The notes under the pieces are model-generated. The model saw only the letters and a list, made by a program, of their open reading frames with translations. It did no database searches and was not told where the DNA came from. Both the position numbers and the translations under genes were made by a program. DNA of 56,853 bases from a virus (Duplodnaviria; Caudoviricetes), in IMG/VR virus record IMGVR_UViG_3300031953_000013, positions 1 through 56,853 of that record, one strand, 5' to 3'. This document shows positions 24,287 to 37,587 of this stretch, piece by piece (within the stretch, counting starts at the first letter, position 1; every line of letters begins with the position of its first letter).

Positions 24287-24745
24287 ATGGCAAAGAGAAT
24301 GTACGCTGATACCAACAAAACAGTTATCTATCAAAACAACAATGCGGTGATAGACAACCCGTTGGGGGATATCAACAATGTGTTCTTCCACAGCATATTC
24401 GACTACTTAGCCATACAAAATAAGGTTCGGACAAATGTTACGATACCAAGTAGTGCGGGGGGTACGTTTAACCAATGGGATATTATAAACGCATTCGCTC
24501 ATGGTTTATCATATAAGCCAACCGTGGGAGCTTACATAAACAATACTGGGATACAAGCGCCCATTGTGGGTACGTTCGTTTACTCAATGGAAGAAGGTTC
24601 AGGCGGCACACAGATACAACAACTATATGCAGTGTCTAATGATACTCATGTTGGCATACTGTATGGCAGAACTGCAAAGCCCGCCACCAGCCTACCATCG
24701 TTCGTATTGGACGTTACATTCTTCGTATATGAGGAAATTCCATGA
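24287..24745 (+). CDS. Hypothetical tail-tip protein
   Basis: Beta-rich, AHGLSYKP motif; follows J. Confidence 0.55.
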   Translation: MAKRMYADTNKTVIYQNNNAVIDNPLGDINNVFFHSIFDYLAIQNKVRTNVTIPSSAGGTFNQWDIINAFAHGLSYKPTVGAYINNTGIQAPIVGTFVYSMEEGSGGTQIQQLYAVSNDTHVGILYGRTAKPATSLPSFVLDVTFFVYEEIP

Positions 24746-25473
24746 CGCTTTATGTAGATGCGGATACGTTTACGGCTGGAGATAGCTTTGACTCTAATAA
24801 GGTTTATACGCGCCAAAGTAATGAGGCCGCATTAGACAAGTTTTACCTTCCGACAAATGAGACAACGACAATATTTCTAGGTGGTAATGCTGATAACTTT
24901 GCGTATGTGTTCAACGCCTTAGCCTGGTCTAAGGGAGTAAATGTCAACATGTTTTCATCAGCTTTATATTCGTGTACAGATGAATGGGGCACCCCAACAT
25001 CAACAGATAGCTTTGTAGCTGCAAATGATAAGATCGAGATTAACAAAAATGGGCGCCTTGCCTTCGGTACGGGTAACTCTATGCCCCACATATACTCGAA
25101 AGAGTCGGGTACAGTCTCGTTTCCCGCCCGCGCCCCTGATGCACAGGCAGCAGAAATATTTACAGATGTTGCAGTGTTGGCGACTGGGAAACTTCCTCAG
25201 ACAGATTTCGTTTTTGTCCAAGCTGAGTATACAGCTCCCGCTTACTTGAGTGGTTATAAAATAAACTTCGACGGGACGTCATCACCGTACTCCGTACAGC
25301 AAGGTTTCTCAGGAGGTCTTGAGCTCTGGGTGGCGCACTCACTTCTTGACTTCTCGGTAAATAGCTCTGGTCAACTAATAGTGACTAACCGTTGGTTTAA
25401 CCAGTCATCAGCCGGACAAAACATACCAGCGATCAACTTCTCATACACTGTGTATCTTGGCTTATTCAACTAA
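24742..25473 (+). CDS. Hypothetical tail-tip protein
   Basis: ATGA overlap with the previous gene; beta-rich. Confidence 0.55.
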   Translation: MTLYVDADTFTAGDSFDSNKVYTRQSNEAALDKFYLPTNETTTIFLGGNADNFAYVFNALAWSKGVNVNMFSSALYSCTDEWGTPTSTDSFVAANDKIEINKNGRLAFGTGNSMPHIYSKESGTVSFPARAPDAQAAEIFTDVAVLATGKLPQTDFVFVQAEYTAPAYLSGYKINFDGTSSPYSVQQGFSGGLELWVAHSLLDFSVNSSGQLIVTNRWFNQSSAGQNIPAINFSYTVYLGLFN

Positions 25474-25503
25474 CACCACAAAGAATTAAAGGGAGCAAGC
25501 TAA

Positions 25504-27261
25504 ATGCAATACAAAACAGGCACAGCAAGCGTCACAAACGGCTCCGCTGTCGTAACAGGCTCTGGCACGGCATGGTTGGCCAACGTAAGCATAGGTGACG
25601 GGTTCGTTATCGCGGGAATCCCCGCTCCCTACACCGTCTCTGCTGTCGGCACAGACACACAGATCACCCTGTCTGCACCGTGGGCCGGCGCCAGTGCTTC
25701 TGGCTCAGTCTATGCCGTGTTCAGGGACTTCACGACCAACGAGAATCTGCCTGAGCTGTCGAAAGGCGATATTGAGACAGCTACTATCTGGACTAGGGCG
25801 TTAAGGCTTGTTGATGCGCTCGTTGGCGCTGCAACGACTACTAGCAGGGGGACGGTCGAGCAGGCCACCACTCAAGAGGCATTAGACGCAACAGCAGACA
25901 AATATCCTGATGCAGCTGGGGTTCATGCGGCTGCTGAGGTGGTGGTAGCGGCTCACGTTGCAGGGAGTGACCCTCATACGCAGTACGTCCCAAAAGCCAC
26001 AGCCGAGCAGGAATTGCAGGAATACTTTGAACCACGGAGGTCCGGCAACGTGGTATGGAACCAAACGTCAGACACTTTTAGTCGGGAAGGTATGTCCACA
26101 GGAGTCACGCCGATTCATGAACGGATGCGGCGATGCCTGCTGAATGATGATGGTACGGTGAACTATTACCTTAGCCTGAACGACTCAACGCTGAAAGCCG
26201 ACGGGACTGCTGCCGTTCTGGACGGTACCGATGGTCAGGTGATGGTCGAGATTCCTAAGTGCTACGTCCGAGTTTCCACGTTATTTAACGGTGACATTAA
26301 GCGGGAGATTAGTGATTACCCCCGGTCGGGCTTCGTGCTGCACCCTGCGTTCGCTATTGGCGGTGTGTTGGCTCACGATCCCGCGCTGGACATGTGGTAC
26401 TACCAAAATCCAACCGGGGAGAAGTCAGCCACTTACCTCGGTGCGTATCAAGCCAGTGTGTATGACACCAGTGGACTGGCTTATATTGATGGCCTGAACC
26501 TGGACAATAACGACGCTAGGGTGGACTACGCAGCCGACATTCTGGGCTCCGTGTCCGGCCAGTATCCAATGGTCGGTGTCACTCGGTCACAGACGCGACA
26601 ATTGGCCAGTAACCGGGGCTCCAGTTGGTCGCAGATGACGTTCTGGCAATGGTCGCTGGTGAAATTGTTGTTCTTCGTAGAGTACGGTGGCTTTGACGGT
26701 CAGGCTCTGTTAGCAGCCGGTAGTGCCAGTGTAAGTACTGGGTATTCGGCTTCATCGTCCGTCCAGACCGATTCACCCCACTCAGCTGCCGGTAAGTCCA
26801 ATATCGTTGGTAACGGCTCAGGTGGTGTTGATAGCAGCACCCGAGACACTGCATGGATGAGCTACCGGGGAATCGAAAACTTCTGGGGTAACGCATGGCA
26901 GTTCTGCGACGGTTTTAACGTCAACGACTGGATATGGTATGTCAGTAATGACCCTGGTACCTTTACCGATGATACGGCTACCGGGTACAACCAACTCGGT
27001 GTAGCTGCACCGGCGTCAAACGGGTACATCCGGAATGTGCAGCACAACACCCTTGGTGATGTCTTAGCCGACTCGAGTGGTAATTCATCTACCGCGTTTG
27101 CCGATTATTACTACCAGAATCCAGGATGGCGGGGGGCCCGTGTGGGTGGTGCCGCCTCGGATGGTGCGCTTGTCGGTCCGTCTTTTGTCCTTGTGAGTAG
27201 TTCCTCGGGCGTTCGGTATCGGTACGTCTCCGGGCGGCTTGCTTACTCCAAAAATCAATAA
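25504..27261 (+). CDS. Tail fibre / receptor-binding protein, DGR target with C-terminal CLec (FGE-like) domain
   Basis: N-terminal fibre anchor (GTASVTNGS..VTGSGT.W), DPHTQY, VMVEIPK, LHPAF and GIENFWGNAWQFCDG; VR at the 3' end. Confidence 0.88.
   Translation: MQYKTGTASVTNGSAVVTGSGTAWLANVSIGDGFVIAGIPAPYTVSAVGTDTQITLSAPWAGASASGSVYAVFRDFTTNENLPELSKGDIETATIWTRALRLVDALVGAATTTSRGTVEQATTQEALDATADKYPDAAGVHAAAEVVVAAHVAGSDPHTQYVPKATAEQELQEYFEPRRSGNVVWNQTSDTFSREGMSTGVTPIHERMRRCLLNDDGTVNYYLSLNDSTLKADGTAAVLDGTDGQVMVEIPKCYVRVSTLFNGDIKREISDYPRSGFVLHPAFAIGGVLAHDPALDMWYYQNPTGEKSATYLGAYQASVYDTSGLAYIDGLNLDNNDARVDYAADILGSVSGQYPMVGVTRSQTRQLASNRGSSWSQMTFWQWSLVKLLFFVEYGGFDGQALLAAGSASVSTGYSASSSVQTDSPHSAAGKSNIVGNGSGGVDSSTRDTAWMSYRGIENFWGNAWQFCDGFNVNDWIWYVSNDPGTFTDDTATGYNQLGVAAPASNGYIRNVQHNTLGDVLADSSGNSSTAFADYYYQNPGWRGARVGGAASDGALVGPSFVLVSSSSGVRYRYVSGRLAYSKNQ
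27136..27243 (+). repeat. DGR variable repeat (VR)
   Basis: 108-nt ungapped match to 27327-27434; all 25 mismatches lie opposite TR adenines. Confidence 0.95.
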
Positions 27262-27299
27262 TCCATTAAACAGCTAAGGAGACTGATGGCTAAAAACTA

Positions 27300-27525
27300 G
27301 GGGTTCTTTGTTAGGCAGGGAAGGTAGCCCATGTAGGTGGTAACACCTCGAATGGTACGAATGTCAGTCCGTCTTATGTCAATGTGAATAATTCCTCAGG
27401 CAATCGGAATCGGAACATCACCAGGCAACTTGCTATAGATCACAGGAAAACAAAGAATCCCGCCGAGAGGCGTAAACGCATCCCACAAAAGCTTAGTAAA
27501 CCGGATTGGTCTGAAACGCTTGGGC
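27300..27525 (+). ncRNA. Putative DGR RNA (TR plus structured flanks)
   Basis: 13-bp complementary arms at 27300-27312 and 27449-27461; GAGA tetraloop hairpin at 27461-27472. Confidence 0.6.
27327..27434 (+). repeat. DGR template repeat (TR)
   Basis: Nine AAY codons and 30 adenines; non-coding, upstream of the RT. Confidence 0.95.
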
Positions 27526-27549
27526 GCTGTATAGCATTAAAGGATGATT

Positions 27550-28509
27550 ATGAAACGATATGGTAATCTCTTTGACGAGATCGCATCTATGGACAACTTA
27601 CGGGAGGCCCATAGAAAGGCCTCAAAAGGTAAGGGTCATTATACAGAAGTGCTGGAGATAAATAAGTGCAAAGAATTTTACCTCCAGCAGCTACACGATC
27701 AGCTTATAAGTGGTACGTACCAAACCAGCGAGTATCGTGTGATGGAGCGAGTAGAGGGGCGTAAGCTCCGTGTAATACACGTATTGCCTTATTTCCCAGA
27801 CCGGATTGTTCACCATGCCATTATGCAGGTTGTTGGTGGTATCTGGAAACGCTCGCTGATACGGGATACGTTTCAATCTTTGGTAGGTCGTGGCACCTCA
27901 GATGCACGCCGACGTGTGCAGAAAGCCATACGGAATGGAAAACCTACCTACTACCTACAAATGGACGTTAAGAAGTTCTACCCGTCAGTACAACACTGGG
28001 TCAGTAAGCTATGTGTTCGTCGCCATATAAAGTGCCCGCGTACTCTTGCATTACTAGACAACATTATTGAGAGTGTTGAGGGACTGCCTATTGGTAACTA
28101 CATATCACAGATGATAGGTAACATGGTCCTGTCTAGTGTTGATTGGTATGTAAAGCAGGCATTAAAAGCGAAGTATTACTTCCGTTATTGTGATGATCTT
28201 ATTGTACTGGGTTCGTGTAAGAAATGGTTACGGTCAGCACAAAAAAGAATTGAGCAACAGGTGAATAAACTAGGACTTATAATTAAACCCACTTGGATTA
28301 TTCAATCCTTGGAAAGCAACGGTTTAGATTTTTGTGGGTACGCCTTTTTCAGAGACTGCATTCGTCTGCGTGCGACGATCAAGTATAGGTACCTGCAATC
28401 GGTGAACGATAAATGGATAACGAGTATCAACGCTTATTGGGGGTGGTTAAAGCCACTTAACAATAAGGGTCTTTGGCAACCAGGAAGAGAGGTACTGAAA
28501 AATGCTTAA
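27550..28509 (+). CDS. DGR reverse transcriptase
   Basis: MKRYGNLF start, PDRIVHHA, MDVKKFYPS, GLPIGNYISQ (GxxxSQ), YFRYCDD, LDFCGY. Confidence 0.95.
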   Translation: MKRYGNLFDEIASMDNLREAHRKASKGKGHYTEVLEINKCKEFYLQQLHDQLISGTYQTSEYRVMERVEGRKLRVIHVLPYFPDRIVHHAIMQVVGGIWKRSLIRDTFQSLVGRGTSDARRRVQKAIRNGKPTYYLQMDVKKFYPSVQHWVSKLCVRRHIKCPRTLALLDNIIESVEGLPIGNYISQMIGNMVLSSVDWYVKQALKAKYYFRYCDDLIVLGSCKKWLRSAQKRIEQQVNKLGLIIKPTWIIQSLESNGLDFCGYAFFRDCIRLRATIKYRYLQSVNDKWITSINAYWGWLKPLNNKGLWQPGREVLKNA

Positions 28510-28819
28510 CCGATTAACACACACCCCAGTTCCATTAAATACGTATGAAGTGATGGGCCATAAAGTCCGTATCCATTTCAATGAGCAGACCGTCACGAGA
28601 ATGGGTGAAGACGGCGTAGAGGTAGCATCGTACACATACAGTACAGCATGTGTAGATAAAGTCGTAGGGCGTGATGCAGTCATTGAAGCAATTATCGCTA
28701 CACAATACCCAACCTACGGTAGCGAACTCGCAGCTATCCAGAATGGAGGTGATGCGGCTCAGGAACATGCTGACTTGCGTATCCTGGCTAAGAGTCTCGC
28801 TACGGGGTGGCTACAATAA
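28502..28819 (+). CDS. Hypothetical protein (possible tail-fibre partner/chaperone)
   Basis: Overlaps the RT stop; IIATQYP....ELA motif; not a basic four-helix Avd-like sequence. Confidence 0.6.
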   Translation: MLNRLTHTPVPLNTYEVMGHKVRIHFNEQTVTRMGEDGVEVASYTYSTACVDKVVGRDAVIEAIIATQYPTYGSELAAIQNGGDAAQEHADLRILAKSLATGWLQ

Positions 28820-28966
28820 TGTTCATAGCGCTGATATGGTTCACCCTACTCGACATTTCCTTGGCCCTGTTACGTATGCTGGGGGCTCTTGGGGCCGCCT
28901 ATGGTAATAAAAACCCTACCAAAGCACGAAGATGGTTGCGCGTATTTACACGTGGGGTTAATAGGA

Positions 28967-28988
28967 AAAGGCCCGTCACGGGGCCTTT
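28967..28988. terminator. Bidirectional terminator between convergent arms
   Basis: aaaggccc-6 nt-gggccttt. Confidence 0.7.
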
Positions 28989-29070
28989 AGTTCATTGCCT
29001 GCCCCCTCTACGACGTATTGCCACCGCTTTTATAACTCGCCCCTATACGAACGCCTAGCCCAGCTTTGCG

Positions 29071-29304
29071 TTACTCGGTGGCAACGTCTAGGCATTGTGC
29101 CTCATAAATGTGTTTGTAATCTGGCCACCCATACGCTCCATTACTGTCCATAAATATTTTGACCGAGGTGCAATACTCTCGTCCTTGGGCCTCGGCTTCG
29201 TTTACCGGGTCGGAAATAGCCGACGGCAGAAGCGTAGAGCCGACTAAAAACCCGAGTAAGCCGAGACCGGAGGCGATACGCTTCTGCGCCTTGGTAAGGT
29301 GCAT
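29071..29304 (-). CDS. Hypothetical membrane-anchored protein
   Basis: N-terminal TM; YC..V......GWPDY motif. Confidence 0.65.
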   Translation of the reverse strand: MHLTKAQKRIASGLGLLGFLVGSTLLPSAISDPVNEAEAQGREYCTSVKIFMDSNGAYGWPDYKHIYEAQCLDVATE

Positions 29305-33627: not shown

Positions 33628-34530
33628 TTAAAATAACCCCATTTGTTCCATATGAAATTTCGGGTCGCCTTCCAAGAGTAACTCGGATAGCTGCTTAAAC
33701 GCCCAGCAATTAAAAATCCAGCGTGCCATGTATTGCGTTTGGAGGCGCTCCATACTAAACCCGAATTCTTCTATACGCTTGGTTAAAGCGATTCGCAAAT
33801 CGTCCGGAATCGTGTCTAGGTGCTGGTTGTGATTATGGCGCGCCGAGCTATTAGATGACACGGCAAACTTGGCCCCGTTCCAAGGTAGCACAATCAAGCC
33901 GTTCGCCGCCGCTTGAACCCATGACGACGAATCCACCGAGTACCAAGGGTACCGTTTCATTAAGGATGGCGCTGTAAGGCCAAACCCGTGGATTTTGATC
34001 AGAGGGCGACCAGCGCCGTCTGTTAAATGGTGTTCCCATATCCGGTCCAACCATAGAAGCAGCTGAGGTGTGGATATCGGGACCATACCACCAATAGTAA
34101 CGTACTCGTAGTTAGCGACATAATAATCTAAGTACCGGGTATCTTCGCCGTAGTGGAAACAAGGCAGCGGCTGCACTCCTTGGCGTTCCATCTCTATCTG
34201 GTTAGCGAAGGTACCTTGTGCATCGCCAATGGCGTCTAGGACTGAAGCGAATTTAATAATATCCTGTTTATCTTTTATGTAGGCGCAGTACTTGTTCAGG
34301 TTAACGTCCACCCCTTTGGTAAACGCCGAGAAAGCACCAGAGTCCAAGAAAATTTTAGTCCCGTCCTGGCGAATTTTACGAACAACGGTTTCCTTGTGGA
34401 TGTAATGGTACGACTCCAAAATATAAGGCAATTCCAACCGGGCCGCCTGTTCGCGCTCATCCAGACGATGGAAAATGTTACCCTGTAAATTCATGTTGGA
34501 GGTGTAAATACCGGCTAGGTATAGCTTCAC
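33628..34530 (-). CDS. dpdA: DpdA-like DNA-guanine transglycosylase (7-deazaguanine insertion)
   Basis: TGT-fold motifs FLDSGAFS, HGFG and SVDSSSW; adjacent to que genes. Confidence 0.85.
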   Translation of the reverse strand: MKLYLAGIYTSNMNLQGNIFHRLDEREQAARLELPYILESYHYIHKETVVRKIRQDGTKIFLDSGAFSAFTKGVDVNLNKYCAYIKDKQDIIKFASVLDAIGDAQGTFANQIEMERQGVQPLPCFHYGEDTRYLDYYVANYEYVTIGGMVPISTPQLLLWLDRIWEHHLTDGAGRPLIKIHGFGLTAPSLMKRYPWYSVDSSSWVQAAANGLIVLPWNGAKFAVSSNSSARHNHNQHLDTIPDDLRIALTKRIEEFGFSMERLQTQYMARWIFNCWAFKQLSELLLEGDPKFHMEQMGLF

Positions 34531-34691
34531 TCCTCGCCTCCACTTTCAATAATGGCTTTGTCCCACCCTTCTTGGTCTACTACTATTATGCTGCCATCGT
34601 CCCAGCCATACCAAGTCCGCTCTGGATCTTGGGTTTCTAGGACGGCTATTAAATCTGCTATGGTTTTTGCATTACCTAAAATAGGTATCAT
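34527..34691 (-). CDS. Small hypothetical protein (54 aa, MIPILGNAKT...)
   Basis: RBS ggagg; GTGA overlap with the dpdA start. Confidence 0.55.
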   Translation of the reverse strand: MIPILGNAKTIADLIAVLETQDPERTWYGWDDGSIIVVDQEGWDKAIIESGGEE

Positions 34692-34735
34692 ATGACCTCC
34701 AGTAAAAGAGGGCGACCTTAGCCGCCCACCTTTTT

Positions 34736-35653
34736 CTATTTTACCAAAGTAATGAATTCTAGTCTAGCGGAAGGGTCCTCTTTTATAACCCCTCGCAAGG
34801 CAGAGGTTATGGTATGGTGTCCTTGCTTACACACGCCTCTCGACTCCATGCACATGTGACGGGCCTTAATAACCACACCCACCCCTTTCGGTGCTAAGTG
34901 CTCGACCAAGGAGTCGGCTACCTGGCTTGTTAGGCGTTCTTGCACCTGGAGGCGTCGGGCGAACACGTCTACCAGACGAGACAATTTGGAAAGTCCGACT
35001 ATTTTACCATCTGGAATATAGGCTATAGTCGCCGTCCCAAAAATGTCCGCCATGTGGTGTTCGCATTTCGAGTAAAACGGGATGTCCTTAACCACCACCA
35101 TCTCGTCGTACCCATCGGCCCCGTCCTCGAAAACCTTCAAGACGTCCGCTGCGTTTTCCTGGTAACCTTTACACCAGTACGCTAGGGCTTTTGCCACCCG
35201 GGCCGGGGTTTCGGAAAGCCCCTCTCGGTCCACGTCTTCGCCGACCCATTGCAAAATTCGGCGGATGTTACCTTCGATACCCGTGGAGGCGTCGCCCTCC
35301 CAAGGGAAGACTACCCATTTACCTTTGAACGGGGTCGCTGGCAGCGTTTTGTCGACCAAGGCGATAAACGGCTTACCCGGGTACTCGTCGCACCACAAAC
35401 GCATGGAGGCACCGCTGTCGATTATATCGTCAACAAAAAAGTCCGCCATTGCGGGATCGTCCACGACTTCCAAATCAAACTCGGCGCTTAGGGCGTAGGC
35501 GGCCGGGACTCCACCGCGTGGAATCGGGTAGCAACGGTTTAGCCTTCTACCGTTCCCGTTTTTAAGGAACACGCCAATACTCGCCAACGTATCGCCAAGA
35601 CCCAAGCACAGGTTTTCAATATCGCTGTTTTGTAAATAGGCCTTAGACTTCAT
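34736..35653 (-). CDS. folE: GTP cyclohydrolase I with N-terminal phosphoribosyltransferase-like domain
   Basis: FolE motifs CEHH, GLSKL, LQVQERLT and HMCMESRG; N-terminal IPRGG, VDDIIDSGAS and WVVFPWE. Confidence 0.9.
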   Translation of the reverse strand: MKSKAYLQNSDIENLCLGLGDTLASIGVFLKNGNGRRLNRCYPIPRGGVPAAYALSAEFDLEVVDDPAMADFFVDDIIDSGASMRLWCDEYPGKPFIALVDKTLPATPFKGKWVVFPWEGDASTGIEGNIRRILQWVGEDVDREGLSETPARVAKALAYWCKGYQENAADVLKVFEDGADGYDEMVVVKDIPFYSKCEHHMADIFGTATIAYIPDGKIVGLSKLSRLVDVFARRLQVQERLTSQVADSLVEHLAPKGVGVVIKARHMCMESRGVCKQGHHTITSALRGVIKEDPSARLEFITLVK

Positions 35654-36086
35654 ATTCTGGTTCCCCTAGTTCGTAACTGGCGCTGCATTTTGCGGTTTCT
35701 TCAATGTCGACCATGGTAAGGCGAACGCCGGTACCGAAGAGTACCGCAGGGCCAATATCTTCGACCAAATACTTTGCCATATTTTCTGCCGTCGGATTAA
35801 ACGGGACCCGGACGACTTGGTCGTCAATATCCAGTAAGTAGGCGCCTATAGGGTCGCCATCCCAAACCAGAAAACGGTGGTCCCATTCGTTCTCTACCCA
35901 CATGCATAGCTTTTCCTTAATTACCGAAAAGTCGATGACCCGCCCAACACTGTCCAGATTATCCGACTCGCAAATAAAATGGATGCGGTAGTTATGGCCG
36001 TGCAGGTGGGCGCATTTGCTTTCGTGACCGTAGACGCGGTGTCCGGCACAAATATCGTGGTAACGCTTAGCTTTGGTTTTTTGCAT
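35643..36086 (-). CDS. queD: 6-carboxytetrahydropterin synthase
   Basis: GHR...CAHLHGHNY, DH, PTAEN and EET motifs. Confidence 0.92.
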   Translation of the reverse strand: MQKTKAKRYHDICAGHRVYGHESKCAHLHGHNYRIHFICESDNLDSVGRVIDFSVIKEKLCMWVENEWDHRFLVWDGDPIGAYLLDIDDQVVRVPFNPTAENMAKYLVEDIGPAVLFGTGVRLTMVDIEETAKCSASYELGEPEYEV

Positions 36087-36130
36087 TTTGGTTTCCTCAA
36101 AATAAGGTGGGGCGAGCCCACCGGTGGGGG

Positions 36131-36874
36131 CTACTCGGATTCTTCTTCGTTACTGCCGACTAGATACCCGTCGGTATCGCGGCTTACTACAAATTCGTGG
36201 TAGCCTTTGCGTCGAAGATTGCAAGCGGGGCACTTACCGCAACCGGCGCCCCATTCGTGTTTGATATTACGGACCCCATTATAGCACGTGTGGCTATGCT
36301 CCAAGACGACCTGTAGAATCCCGACTTCGTCGGCCAGGTCGAAGGTTTCGGCCTTGGTTAAATTCATCAAAGGGGTTTCGATTTGGATATCCGTTAAGTA
36401 CCCAATATTCAGGGCGTTTTGCAAGGCCACGATAAACGCTAACCGGCAATCTGGGTAGCCACTGTAATCTGTTTGGCAAACCCCGGTATAGATCGTAGAC
36501 GCTTCGACTTTTTGAGCGTAAGCATGGGCTGTGGTAAGGAACAAGGCGTTTCTATTCGGGACAAAAGACGCCGGTAGAGTTTTGTTACGATGGTGCGCCG
36601 CCGAAACGTCGCCGCCGGTAGTTAAGGCGCTATCGCCGAGTTCTTTTAAGGCTGGGATGGTGAAAATTTCAAAAGGTACGTCAAATCCCTCGCAGATCAA
36701 TTTAGCCTGCTCCAATTCGACGGAATGGGTTTGCCCGTAAGAAAAGCCTAAGCCATAAACTTTAGTGTGCTTTTTTAGGGCGAGGCCCAAACAGGTAACC
36801 GAGTCTTGCCCGCCAGACAAGACGACAACGGCGGAGGACGACGATGGTTTAAGATCCAGTTCTTGCTGTTTCAT
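36131..36874 (-). CDS. queC: 7-cyano-7-deazaguanine synthase
   Basis: SGGQDS, VPNRN, YPDCR and TCY...CGKCPAC motifs. Confidence 0.95.
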   Translation of the reverse strand: MKQQELDLKPSSSSAVVVLSGGQDSVTCLGLALKKHTKVYGLGFSYGQTHSVELEQAKLICEGFDVPFEIFTIPALKELGDSALTTGGDVSAAHHRNKTLPASFVPNRNALFLTTAHAYAQKVEASTIYTGVCQTDYSGYPDCRLAFIVALQNALNIGYLTDIQIETPLMNLTKAETFDLADEVGILQVVLEHSHTCYNGVRNIKHEWGAGCGKCPACNLRRKGYHEFVVSRDTDGYLVGSNEEESE

Positions 36875-36879
36875 TTGGG

Positions 36880-37587
36880 TTATTCCAAGTCGAGTAGTTT
36901 ATGTAGCTGCAAGCATAGGGTGTACCCATAACGGAAGCAGCTACGTACTGCGGCGTCGAGATGGCGTTTATTTTCCACCTCGTCTTCTACGTCAACGGGT
37001 TGGACGTAAATTATACGGTCAAACCCCGCTGGCGGTTTAGCGGTGACCGGACGGGCGGAATGGCCGAGGGCTGTTATTGGTAATCCGTCCGTCTGGTCAA
37101 TCTGGTCGGCGTGAACTACGTATTTTAGCGCCGTAATATGCGGGGCCAACTTCGAGTTAATGCTTCCCGCTTTTGGGCTGCAAACTATGGTGACGTTCGG
37201 GTCGTCGTAAGGGAACCCGGCGCAATACAACGTTCCGTTGGTTTCGATTTGGACGTGGTAACCTAGGCCTACCAGTACCCTAACTAACGGACCGATATTT
37301 TGGCGGAAAGGCTCGCCACCAGTAATGACGACCAAGTCCGTGGCGTAGTCGTCGGTAGTGCACGCTTTAACTTTGTCCACAATAAACTCTGGTTTTACCG
37401 CCGTTCTTTGGCTTGTGTAATCGGTGTCGCATAAGGGGCAGCATAAATTGCATCCCGATAAACGAACGAATACGGCAGCGGTCCCGGCAAATGGCCCTTC
37501 ACCCTGCATGGTTGGAAAAACGTGGTGGAGGTCGACGATACCGGATTGTATGTGTTTTGGTTTTTCTACGGTCTGAGTATTTTGCAT
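36880..37587 (-). CDS. queE: 7-carboxy-7-deazaguanine synthase (radical SAM)
   Basis: QGEG, CNLCCPLCDT, TGGEP, ETNG, SPK and QLHK motifs. Confidence 0.95.
   Translation of the reverse strand: MQNTQTVEKPKHIQSGIVDLHHVFPTMQGEGPFAGTAAVFVRLSGCNLCCPLCDTDYTSQRTAVKPEFIVDKVKACTTDDYATDLVVITGGEPFRQNIGPLVRVLVGLGYHVQIETNGTLYCAGFPYDDPNVTIVCSPKAGSINSKLAPHITALKYVVHADQIDQTDGLPITALGHSARPVTAKPPAGFDRIIYVQPVDVEDEVENKRHLDAAVRSCFRYGYTLCLQLHKLLDLE

Follow-up and report, generated by a model that had tools for sequence, protein, structure and literature searches.

The window analyzed here, i.e. the whole 56,853-bp stretch of DNA constituting virus record IMGVR_UViG_3300031953_000013, is a complete siphovirus-type phage genome from brine metagenomes (direct terminal repeats, rated 100% complete; the exact terminal repeat amounts to 127 bp). 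Behind its tail genes lies a diversity-generating retroelement (DGR) composed of a target gene (TG), a template repeat (TR) and a gene for a reverse transcriptase (RT), arranged on one strand as TG-TR-RT and unaccompanied by avd, HRDC or MSL (Table 1). The reading frames of target and RT are intact, in line with the preliminary description of the element as an intact DGR. Very probably, the cassette is a functional avd-less TG-TR-RT DGR.

The variable repeat (VR) at the target gene's 3' end differs from TR at 25 positions and all 25 mismatches are found opposite TR adenines (15 A>G, seven A>T and three A>C), with A retained in VR at the remaining five of the 30 TR-adenine sites. Our recount of the 108 ungapped positions agrees exactly with the figures given in the preliminary description (25 mismatches at 25 of 30 TR adenines), and the hypergeometric probability for all 25 mismatches residing on 30 A among 108 positions is 6.6e-20. 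VR starts at codon position 1 of codon 545 and ends five codons ahead of the stop of the 585-codon target gene, while TR is intergenic and located 83 nt downstream of VR and ~115 nt upstream of the RT start. Directly 5' of position 27136 weak VR/TR similarity goes on, but with mismatches at bases other than A. When both strands of the genome were scanned with TR, ignoring its A positions, only VR and TR themselves were returned and no further VR was found. Read in the VR frame, TR comprises 20 A-containing codons, nine of which are AAY, and the number of possible stops is zero. The resulting diversity ceilings are 4^30 = 1.15e18 DNA variants and 9.5e15 protein variants. The 4^30 variants put forward earlier hold as an upper bound but not as real diversity, since three of the adenines are part of an invariant 3' element resembling the initiation of mutagenic homing (IMH) sequence and several more face G in every related VR. 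An open reading frame (ORF) at 27384-27566 (60 aa) that extends across TR and spacer was considered as a gene and rejected, as it has no family match and equals TR read in frame.

Table 1. Features of the DGR cassette and of the 7-deazaguanine gene set in the window.
Feature	Position	Strand	Remarks
DGR target, 585-aa tail fiber/receptor-binding protein	25504..27261	+	phrog_5302 'tail protein' 1.7e-74, residues 202-584
N-terminal domain of target (residues 1-74), probable tail-tip attachment	25504..25725	+	PDB 23gd_B and tail-fiber PHROG matches
C-terminal CLec/FGE-type module of target (residues 183-585), predicted to display VR	26050..27258	+	AlphaFold2 model, Foldseek
Variable repeat (VR), codons 545-580	27136..27243	+	108-nt ungapped repeat with TR, 77% identity
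IMH-like 3' element of VR, CCGGGCGGCTTGCT	27230..27243	+	invariant in five related VRs though opposite TR adenines; putative role
Template repeat (TR)	27327..27434	+	30 adenines and 9 AAY codons; A-to-N changes yield no stop codon
IMH*-like 3' element of TR, CCAGGCAACTTGCT	27421..27434	+	alignment of related loci
TR-RT spacer, presumed 3' part of DGR RNA	27435..27549	+	conserved among close relatives (alignment, 5 loci)
DGR reverse transcriptase, 319 aa	27550..28509 (ORF start possible at 27544)	+	RVT_1 9e-13; phrog_1423 'reverse transcriptase' 1.9e-93
ORF105, conserved acidic 105-aa protein	28502..28819	+	ATG overlaps RT stop; travels with cassette
DpdA-type gene, queuine-tRNA-ribosyltransferase-like	33631-34530	-	phrog_887, 8e-75
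FolE	34739-35653	-	7-deazaguanine DNA-modification set (33631-37587)
QueD	35646-36086	-	7-deazaguanine DNA-modification set
QueC	36134-36874	-	7-deazaguanine DNA-modification set
Radical-SAM QueE-like gene	36883-37587	-	7-deazaguanine DNA-modification set

Judged by its sequence, the RT is homologous to the one in the DGR of the Bordetella phage. The GxxxSQ and YCDD motifs noted previously are present in the forms LPIGNYISQ (IGxxxSQ) and RYCDD (YxDD). The best solved relative by sequence is PDB 8ub7_A (E = 4.6e-34), in which GIPIGSLTSQ aligns with GLPIGNYISQ of the window RT and YMDDIVVLG with YCDDLIVLG; scores of RTs from group II introns and retrons are far lower. The entry is named just 'Reverse transcriptase' and is taken to be the Bordetella bRT; its length of 328 aa equals that of Brt. 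Identities amount to 32.5% with Brt of phage BPP-1 (E = 1.3e-36), 44.5% with the fEV-1 RT (Yersinia phage) and 34.4% with the LMMB RT (crAssphage). In NCBIfam, no DGR-specific model was matched and only models for group II intron, retron and Drt RTs appeared, all of them below threshold. The relatives as well as the 319-aa representative of the corresponding database cluster start two codons downstream of the first ATG, which makes the ATG at 27550 the likely start, and not the one at 27544.

The target was previously described as a tail fiber with a C-terminal domain resembling C-type lectins (CLec) and formylglycine-generating enzyme (FGE), and both parts of this description are borne out. 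The gene is situated downstream of those for tape measure, Dit and a J-like tail protein. Several tail-fiber PHROGs match residues 1-77 (about 1-80) of the protein and residues 5-74 resemble PDB 23gd_B, 'Distal tail protein gp20' (phmmer, E = 6e-4), whereas Pfam yields no match for the target. Modeled with AlphaFold2 from 38 sequences, residues 183-585 reach a predicted local distance difference test score (pLDDT) of 94.4 and a predicted template modeling score of 0.93. When this model was compared with the PDB by Foldseek, the best match was TaqVP, the DGR variable protein from Thermus aquaticus (5vf4; E = 6.9e-10, probability 1.00, template modeling (TM) score 0.48-0.51), followed by Mtd (1yu0-1yu4, E about 1e-3) and then by FGE and TvpA (2y3c). 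On the basis of this model, the C-terminal module can confidently be assigned the C-type-lectin/FGE fold that known DGR variable proteins adopt. The likeness to TaqVP is structural: sequence identity to the target is just 15-16% and TaqVP is a cellular protein and not a phage fiber. The same C-terminal module resides behind varied N-termini in more than 1,132 database proteins.

Neither Avd nor HRDC was detected among the 81 ORFs of the genome (Pfam bAvd, PF22296, and HRDC), although BPP-1 Avd scores 7.3e-36 on PF22296 with the same library. No ORF fits the VR-TR or TR-RT gap, which leaves no room for avd there, and no Avd was recognized in sets of 45 and 72 small ORFs from the neighborhood of related RTs. 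A very divergent avd could conceivably reside elsewhere in the genome, because avd is poorly conserved according to Wu et al. (2018; PMC5758913). As no Avd was found, the cassette is assigned to the known avd-less TG-TR-RT type and not to the BPP-1 type; it belongs to Architecture A1 of Wu et al. In their survey, avd accompanied 275 of 372 DGRs, 75 of the 372 fell into Architecture A, consisting of a TR-RT core with no accessory gene, and RT Lineage 3 was stated to 'notably lack avd' (Wu et al., 2018). The preliminary description had the element work as in BPP-1. This holds for the adenine-specific VR/TR pair, the Brt-type RT beside TR and the C-terminal VR on a CLec-type tail-fiber target, but is too strong in that BPP-1 has avd between mtd and TR (mtd-avd-TR-brt) and the phage studied here has none. 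Furthermore, Mtd structures match the target model weakly (TM about 0.3). Crassphage LMMB bears a closer resemblance: its TG-VR(IMH)-TR(IMH*)-RT cassette has the same gene order without avd, was placed in Lineage 3 with CLec3-like VRs by its authors, and its T-CFP target belongs to the same family as ours (E = 8e-42 against the target profile). It differs in that the RT comprises 431 instead of 319 aa, in a hypothetical protein following the RT that is not a relative of ORF105, and in that LMMB is a crAss-like podovirus of the gut and not a siphovirus from brine. Membership of the window's DGR in Lineage 3 is suggested indirectly, via homology of RT and target to those of LMMB and not by a tree including the references of Wu et al.

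The nearest annotated relative in culture is Yersinia phage fEV-1. Its tail fiber g27 belongs to the target family (E = 1.7e-142), g29 encodes the RT, a small ORF occupies the position of TR, and g30 overlaps the RT end and has an ORF105-type N-terminus (E = 7.8e-24). At 201 aa, g30 is longer than ORF105 and, unlike the latter, has a DUF4376 at its C-terminus. In the literature searched, no paper treats fEV-1, Yersinia and reverse transcriptase together. In total, we counted 50 distinct DGRs of this lineage (the window and 49 related loci), the relatives featuring the same cassette with adenine-specific VR/TR pairs. DGRs on phage tail fibers are already well known: more than 30,000 DGRs have been catalogued by Roux et al. 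(2021; count as summarized in PMC9769972), the viral targets of three clades being mostly tail proteins with C-Lec VRs, and a halovirus with a bAvd/bRT DGR has been reported. Avd-less TG-TR-RT DGRs have likewise been described. The window adds a clean and complete avd-less phage DGR in a lineage (from brine, with a Vibrio/Alteromonas-like capsid and a 7-deazaguanine gene set) for which the literature searched describes no DGR.

The VR of the window closes with a GC-rich stretch of 14 nt, CCGGGCGGCTTGCT, that is invariant in the five closest loci and faces CCAGGCA(A/G)CTTGCT in TR. Because the VR end is invariant in these loci, the last three VR/TR 'mismatches' look like fixed differences between IMH and IMH*. 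The sequence GCTATAG at the TR 3' end is predicted by minimum free energy folding to pair with CTGTATAGC just upstream of the RT ribosome-binding site. RNAalifold found no consensus structure over 15 diverse TR-RT spacers and spacer structure is therefore to be regarded as unproven. Rfam families are absent from region 26900-28900. In related loci L004 (2665-2720), L005 and L006, a hairpin of the form GGGCG-N9-CGCCC with a compensatory T-A/C-G change is present ~20 nt past the target stop; this region corresponds to a 27-nt gap in the window and in related locus L002.

Natural variation in VR can be traced in the 90%-identity cluster of the target. It holds three 585-aa members that are identical except for residues 550 (A in the window, H and T in the others) and 553 (D in the window, Y in both others). 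The corresponding VR codons, GCC and GAT, are located opposite AAC and AAT in TR, and the chance that both allele differences fall on AAY-templated codons (9 of 585) is ~2e-4 by hand arithmetic. The three protein alleles point to adenine-directed diversification in nature and provide direct, if small, evidence for it.

Several observations weigh against a working element and may be read as indicating a DGR that is intact in architecture but silent now, with VR/TR differences that are historical and a VR that is essentially fixed. Avd is missing and is essential in BPP-1 (Wu et al., 2018). A GC-rich stem-loop of the BPP-1 type just downstream of VR was not found either, DNA folds of 27236-27330 being weak (-6.1 kcal/mol), and A-free identity after the last VR/TR mismatch is restricted to 6 nt. 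The window's allele occurs on seven contigs and the two other alleles on one each. In four public runs not marked as a possible source of the window (word depths about 2,506, 2,833, 15 and 8.9), the contigs that span VR have exactly the window's version, and no alternative VR contig is listed for these runs. The alleles differ at two 5'-proximal codons only, although full homing should re-randomize many adenine sites, which suggests short-patch transfer, strong selection or infrequent activity. In addition, nine TR-adenine sites, two of them synonymous, face G in all five related VRs. Still, we consider present silence quite improbable. The differences between the three alleles are confined to AAY-templated codons in a protein that is otherwise identical over 585 aa; none of RT, target and TR is disrupted, and relatives with VRs that diverge at AAY sites retain the RT with 65-88% identity. 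Since rare variants are lost in contigs, a single VR in contigs reveals the dominant allele only and not inactivity. A search for other copies of the locus via a 30-nt anchor upstream of VR gave no matches in viral_contigs and none in metagenome_contigs. An ordinary duplication or recombination scar in the vicinity of a retron- or group-II-type RT, and thus no DGR at all, would fit with the sub-threshold NCBIfam matches and the lack of any Rfam family in the region. That explanation is effectively refuted, and we assign next to no probability to it, given the placement of all 25 mismatches at adenines of one copy, the wide margin by which 8ub7_A outscores RTs of group II introns and retrons and the CLec fold predicted for the target, in a design that recurs across the related elements.

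Minor contigs of a related strain were seen in runs X9-X11, of which X9 and X10 are those with word depths of about 2,500-2,800. In run X11, a minor contig covering TR and spacer (27341-27497) exhibits 13 differences that are not adenine-specific, at a depth of 6.3 versus 17.7. Runs X9 and X10 contain minor variants at ~12-22% of depth in the 5' part of the target gene (25545-25639 and 26130-26154) and none in VR.

For a functional avd-less DGR, a mechanism can be outlined that is modeled on what is established for DGRs. TR and the ~115-nt spacer would be carried by the late tail transcript or a sub-transcript, and the RT would copy TR to cDNA, misincorporating opposite adenines and presumably doing so without Avd. 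The cDNA would then replace VR at the 3' end of the tail-fiber gene, with the GC-rich VR end possibly serving as the homing boundary. In this way, up to 20 codons, including the nine AAY codons, could be re-coded on the ligand-binding face of a C-type-lectin-fold tip, never creating a stop, and the phage might thereby alter which receptor is bound and switch its host range. A promoter/terminator scan of 25300-29200 revealed no site on the plus strand, a result compatible with co-transcription with the tail genes, yet no evidence for it.

The bases that face TR adenines are unevenly distributed. Varied bases are seen opposite AAY-codon adenines in the five closest loci, while nine adenine positions face G in every VR, among them the synonymous sites 27144 and 27207. 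Across the 50 distinct DGRs, A is found opposite 37-48% of AAY adenines, with the rest spread over the other bases, and G opposite 60-65% of non-AAY adenines. Among 80 third positions that are four-fold degenerate, G was counted 58 times, T 12 times, A seven times and C three times, and outside the last 20 nt G accounts for 54 and A for seven of 61 sites; these counts derive from related elements with few homologous columns and do not represent 80 independent events. Selection at the protein level cannot explain a G bias at four-fold degenerate sites. The pattern may stem from fixed differences between TR and VR, from an outcome biased to G outside the AAY context, or from biased repair.

The RT gene is followed by ORF105, which is not matched in Pfam, PHROGs or NCBIfam. 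A profile search among 1.84 billion representatives retrieved 647 relatives with E <= 0.001, of which 226 have E <= 1e-10; most are 100-110 aa long. Three scans for related loci, each with a single protein, led to one locus in one case and to none in the two others. The structural model (pLDDT 89.7) predicts four strands and three helices. Foldseek found no solved relative in the PDB at E <= 0.001, the best VIA-align (wide) hit had a Z score of 4.8 and covered helices only, ESM Atlas gave no usable match and BFVD contributed only uncharacterized phage proteins and one 'DUF4376 domain-containing protein'. The calculated isoelectric point (pI) is 5.42, compared with 5.06 +/- 0.76 for the family (n = 150) and 9.55 for BPP-1 Avd. 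BPP-1 itself has an acidic 82-aa ORF, bbp4 (L111 3462-3710; pI 4.14), that overlaps the brt 3' end by 20 nt and matches neither the ORF105 profile nor Pfam.

The position of ORF105 raises the question whether it forms part of the DGR. Its start overlaps the RT end not only in the window but also in 52 of the 58 related loci in which the gene lies on the strand of the RT. It follows the RT in the five closest loci, which do not share the flanking genes p152, p243 and p83. When 151 Bacteroidaceae genomes were sampled without regard to the RT (11 of them with matches, 12 loci), a DGR-type RT was located directly upstream of 11 of the 12 ORF105 copies. ORF105 moreover parallels CH1, a protein that Wu et al. 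proposed as an accessory in avd-less DGRs only, in position, size class and acidity. It is thus conceivable that ORF105 is a fourth DGR component, an acidic accessory that takes the place of Avd and works with the RT, but we consider this unlikely, and a function as RT cofactor equally so. The gene also occurs without an RT: in locus L126 (G106:C35:124000-142000) an ORF105-like gene directly follows a homologue of the target, both RT and TR being absent from the 18 kb, and it comes after target and TR without an intervening RT in two further loci, of which L030 contains VR and TR but no RT (in a provirus record that is 60% complete) and L039 has an RT on the opposite strand ~2 kb away. ORF105 co-varies with the type of target: among loci with adequate flanks, 39 have both this target type and ORF105, ten the target only, two ORF105 only and 18 neither. 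Long forms such as g30 of fEV-1 add DUF4376, a domain that also occurs in the experimentally identified tail-fiber chaperone gp27 of Alteromonas phage V22, the acidic character (pI 5.4) differs from that of the basic, nucleic-acid-binding Avd, and Wu et al. themselves caution that such genes may be plain conserved phage genes. Owing to the co-variation with target type, the RT-less loci and the DUF4376 in long family members, we somewhat favor ORF105 as a probable chaperone or partner of the fiber, whose gene would have been parted from the fiber gene by insertion of TR and RT. A complex prediction for the C-terminal module of the target and ORF105 resulted in a score of 0.00 (mark 0.32) and bears on neither possibility.

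CH1 has been described as a protein of 160-169 aa with a pI of 4.7 and no identifiable motifs, encoded in a TG-TR-RT-CH1 arrangement (Architecture E1, Bacteroides/Prevotella) and confined to avd-less DGRs (Wu et al., 2018). Searching Bacteroidaceae with a long RT recovered CH1-like proteins of 161-164 aa (pI 4.7-5.4) that start at the stop of 389-492-aa RTs in six loci (L136-L138, L142-L145 set), and a relative of 207 aa that follows a 503-aa RT. These proteins were matched to CH1 by description and not to the sequences of Wu et al. Like ORF105, they are small, acidic and encoded at or over the RT stop of avd-less DGRs, but homology between the two is not detectable (hmmsearch E >= 0.022; hhalign probability 3.7%). 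DUF4376 was recognized in all four CH1-like proteins analyzed with 29.2-32.1 bits (Pfam cut-off 25) and, by the same library, not in ORF105. In long ORF105 relatives, the domain follows the ORF105-type part with 30.3 bits in fEV-1 g30 and with 22.1 bits, below the cut-off, in P0180. In Alteromonas phage V22, the DUF4376 protein gp27 has been reported as a tail-fiber chaperone encoded just downstream of the fiber gene; ORF105 differs from this type by the lack of the C-terminal DUF4376. Genes once listed as DGR 'accessory' (CH1-like) therefore carry a domain of a tail-fiber chaperone, and as far as sequence comparison goes, in two avd-less DGR branches the gene behind the RT points to fiber-chaperone biology and not to nucleic-acid binding. 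That the small acidic genes at the RT stop (the ORF105 family with its 647 representative clusters and the DUF4376-bearing CH1-like proteins) constitute a dedicated third component of avd-less cassettes appears doubtful. In the boldest form of this proposal, ORF105 would take over the part of Avd in cDNA synthesis by the RT or in homing; in a milder version, it would be a chaperone specialized for the ever-changing CLec tip, with hypermutation and folding aid inherited as one module. The side results, DUF4376 in CH1-like genes and G opposite TR adenines, may matter more than the element itself.

Other arrangements around related RTs were noted in Dyadobacter, Chitinophagaceae and other Bacteroidota (L051, L064, L074, L080, L081, L085, L088, L091, L092, L095, L098, L100 and L101), where the target type and ORF105 are lacking. 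This block of loci features its own conserved ~100-aa ORF over the RT end as well as ORFs of ~125-130 aa about 200 nt upstream, with no bAvd match.

On the plus strand of the window, genes for small and large terminase, portal, major capsid protein, tail tube, tape measure, Dit, a 1,267-aa J-like protein and two small ORFs precede the DGR target. These two ORFs (152 and 243 aa) occupy 24287-25473, have no PHROG match and a single sub-threshold Pfam match, and are missing from related loci. A block on the minus strand encodes a family-A DNA polymerase, a helicase, thymidylate synthase and the 7-deazaguanine gene set. The combination of a DGR with modified-G DNA in the same phage raises the question of how unmodified cDNA gets installed. 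The literature searched contains incidental co-mentions only and no paper joining a DGR with a deazaguanine-modifying phage, which reflects a gap in the search and is no proof of absence. The capsid protein shares 72-75% identity with its counterparts in Vibrio siphoviruses of ~58 kb and 69% with that of Alteromonas phage R7M. Among the matches listed, the cassette sequence is present in 20 of 21 public runs from 16 studies, labeled as brine or aquatic metagenome.

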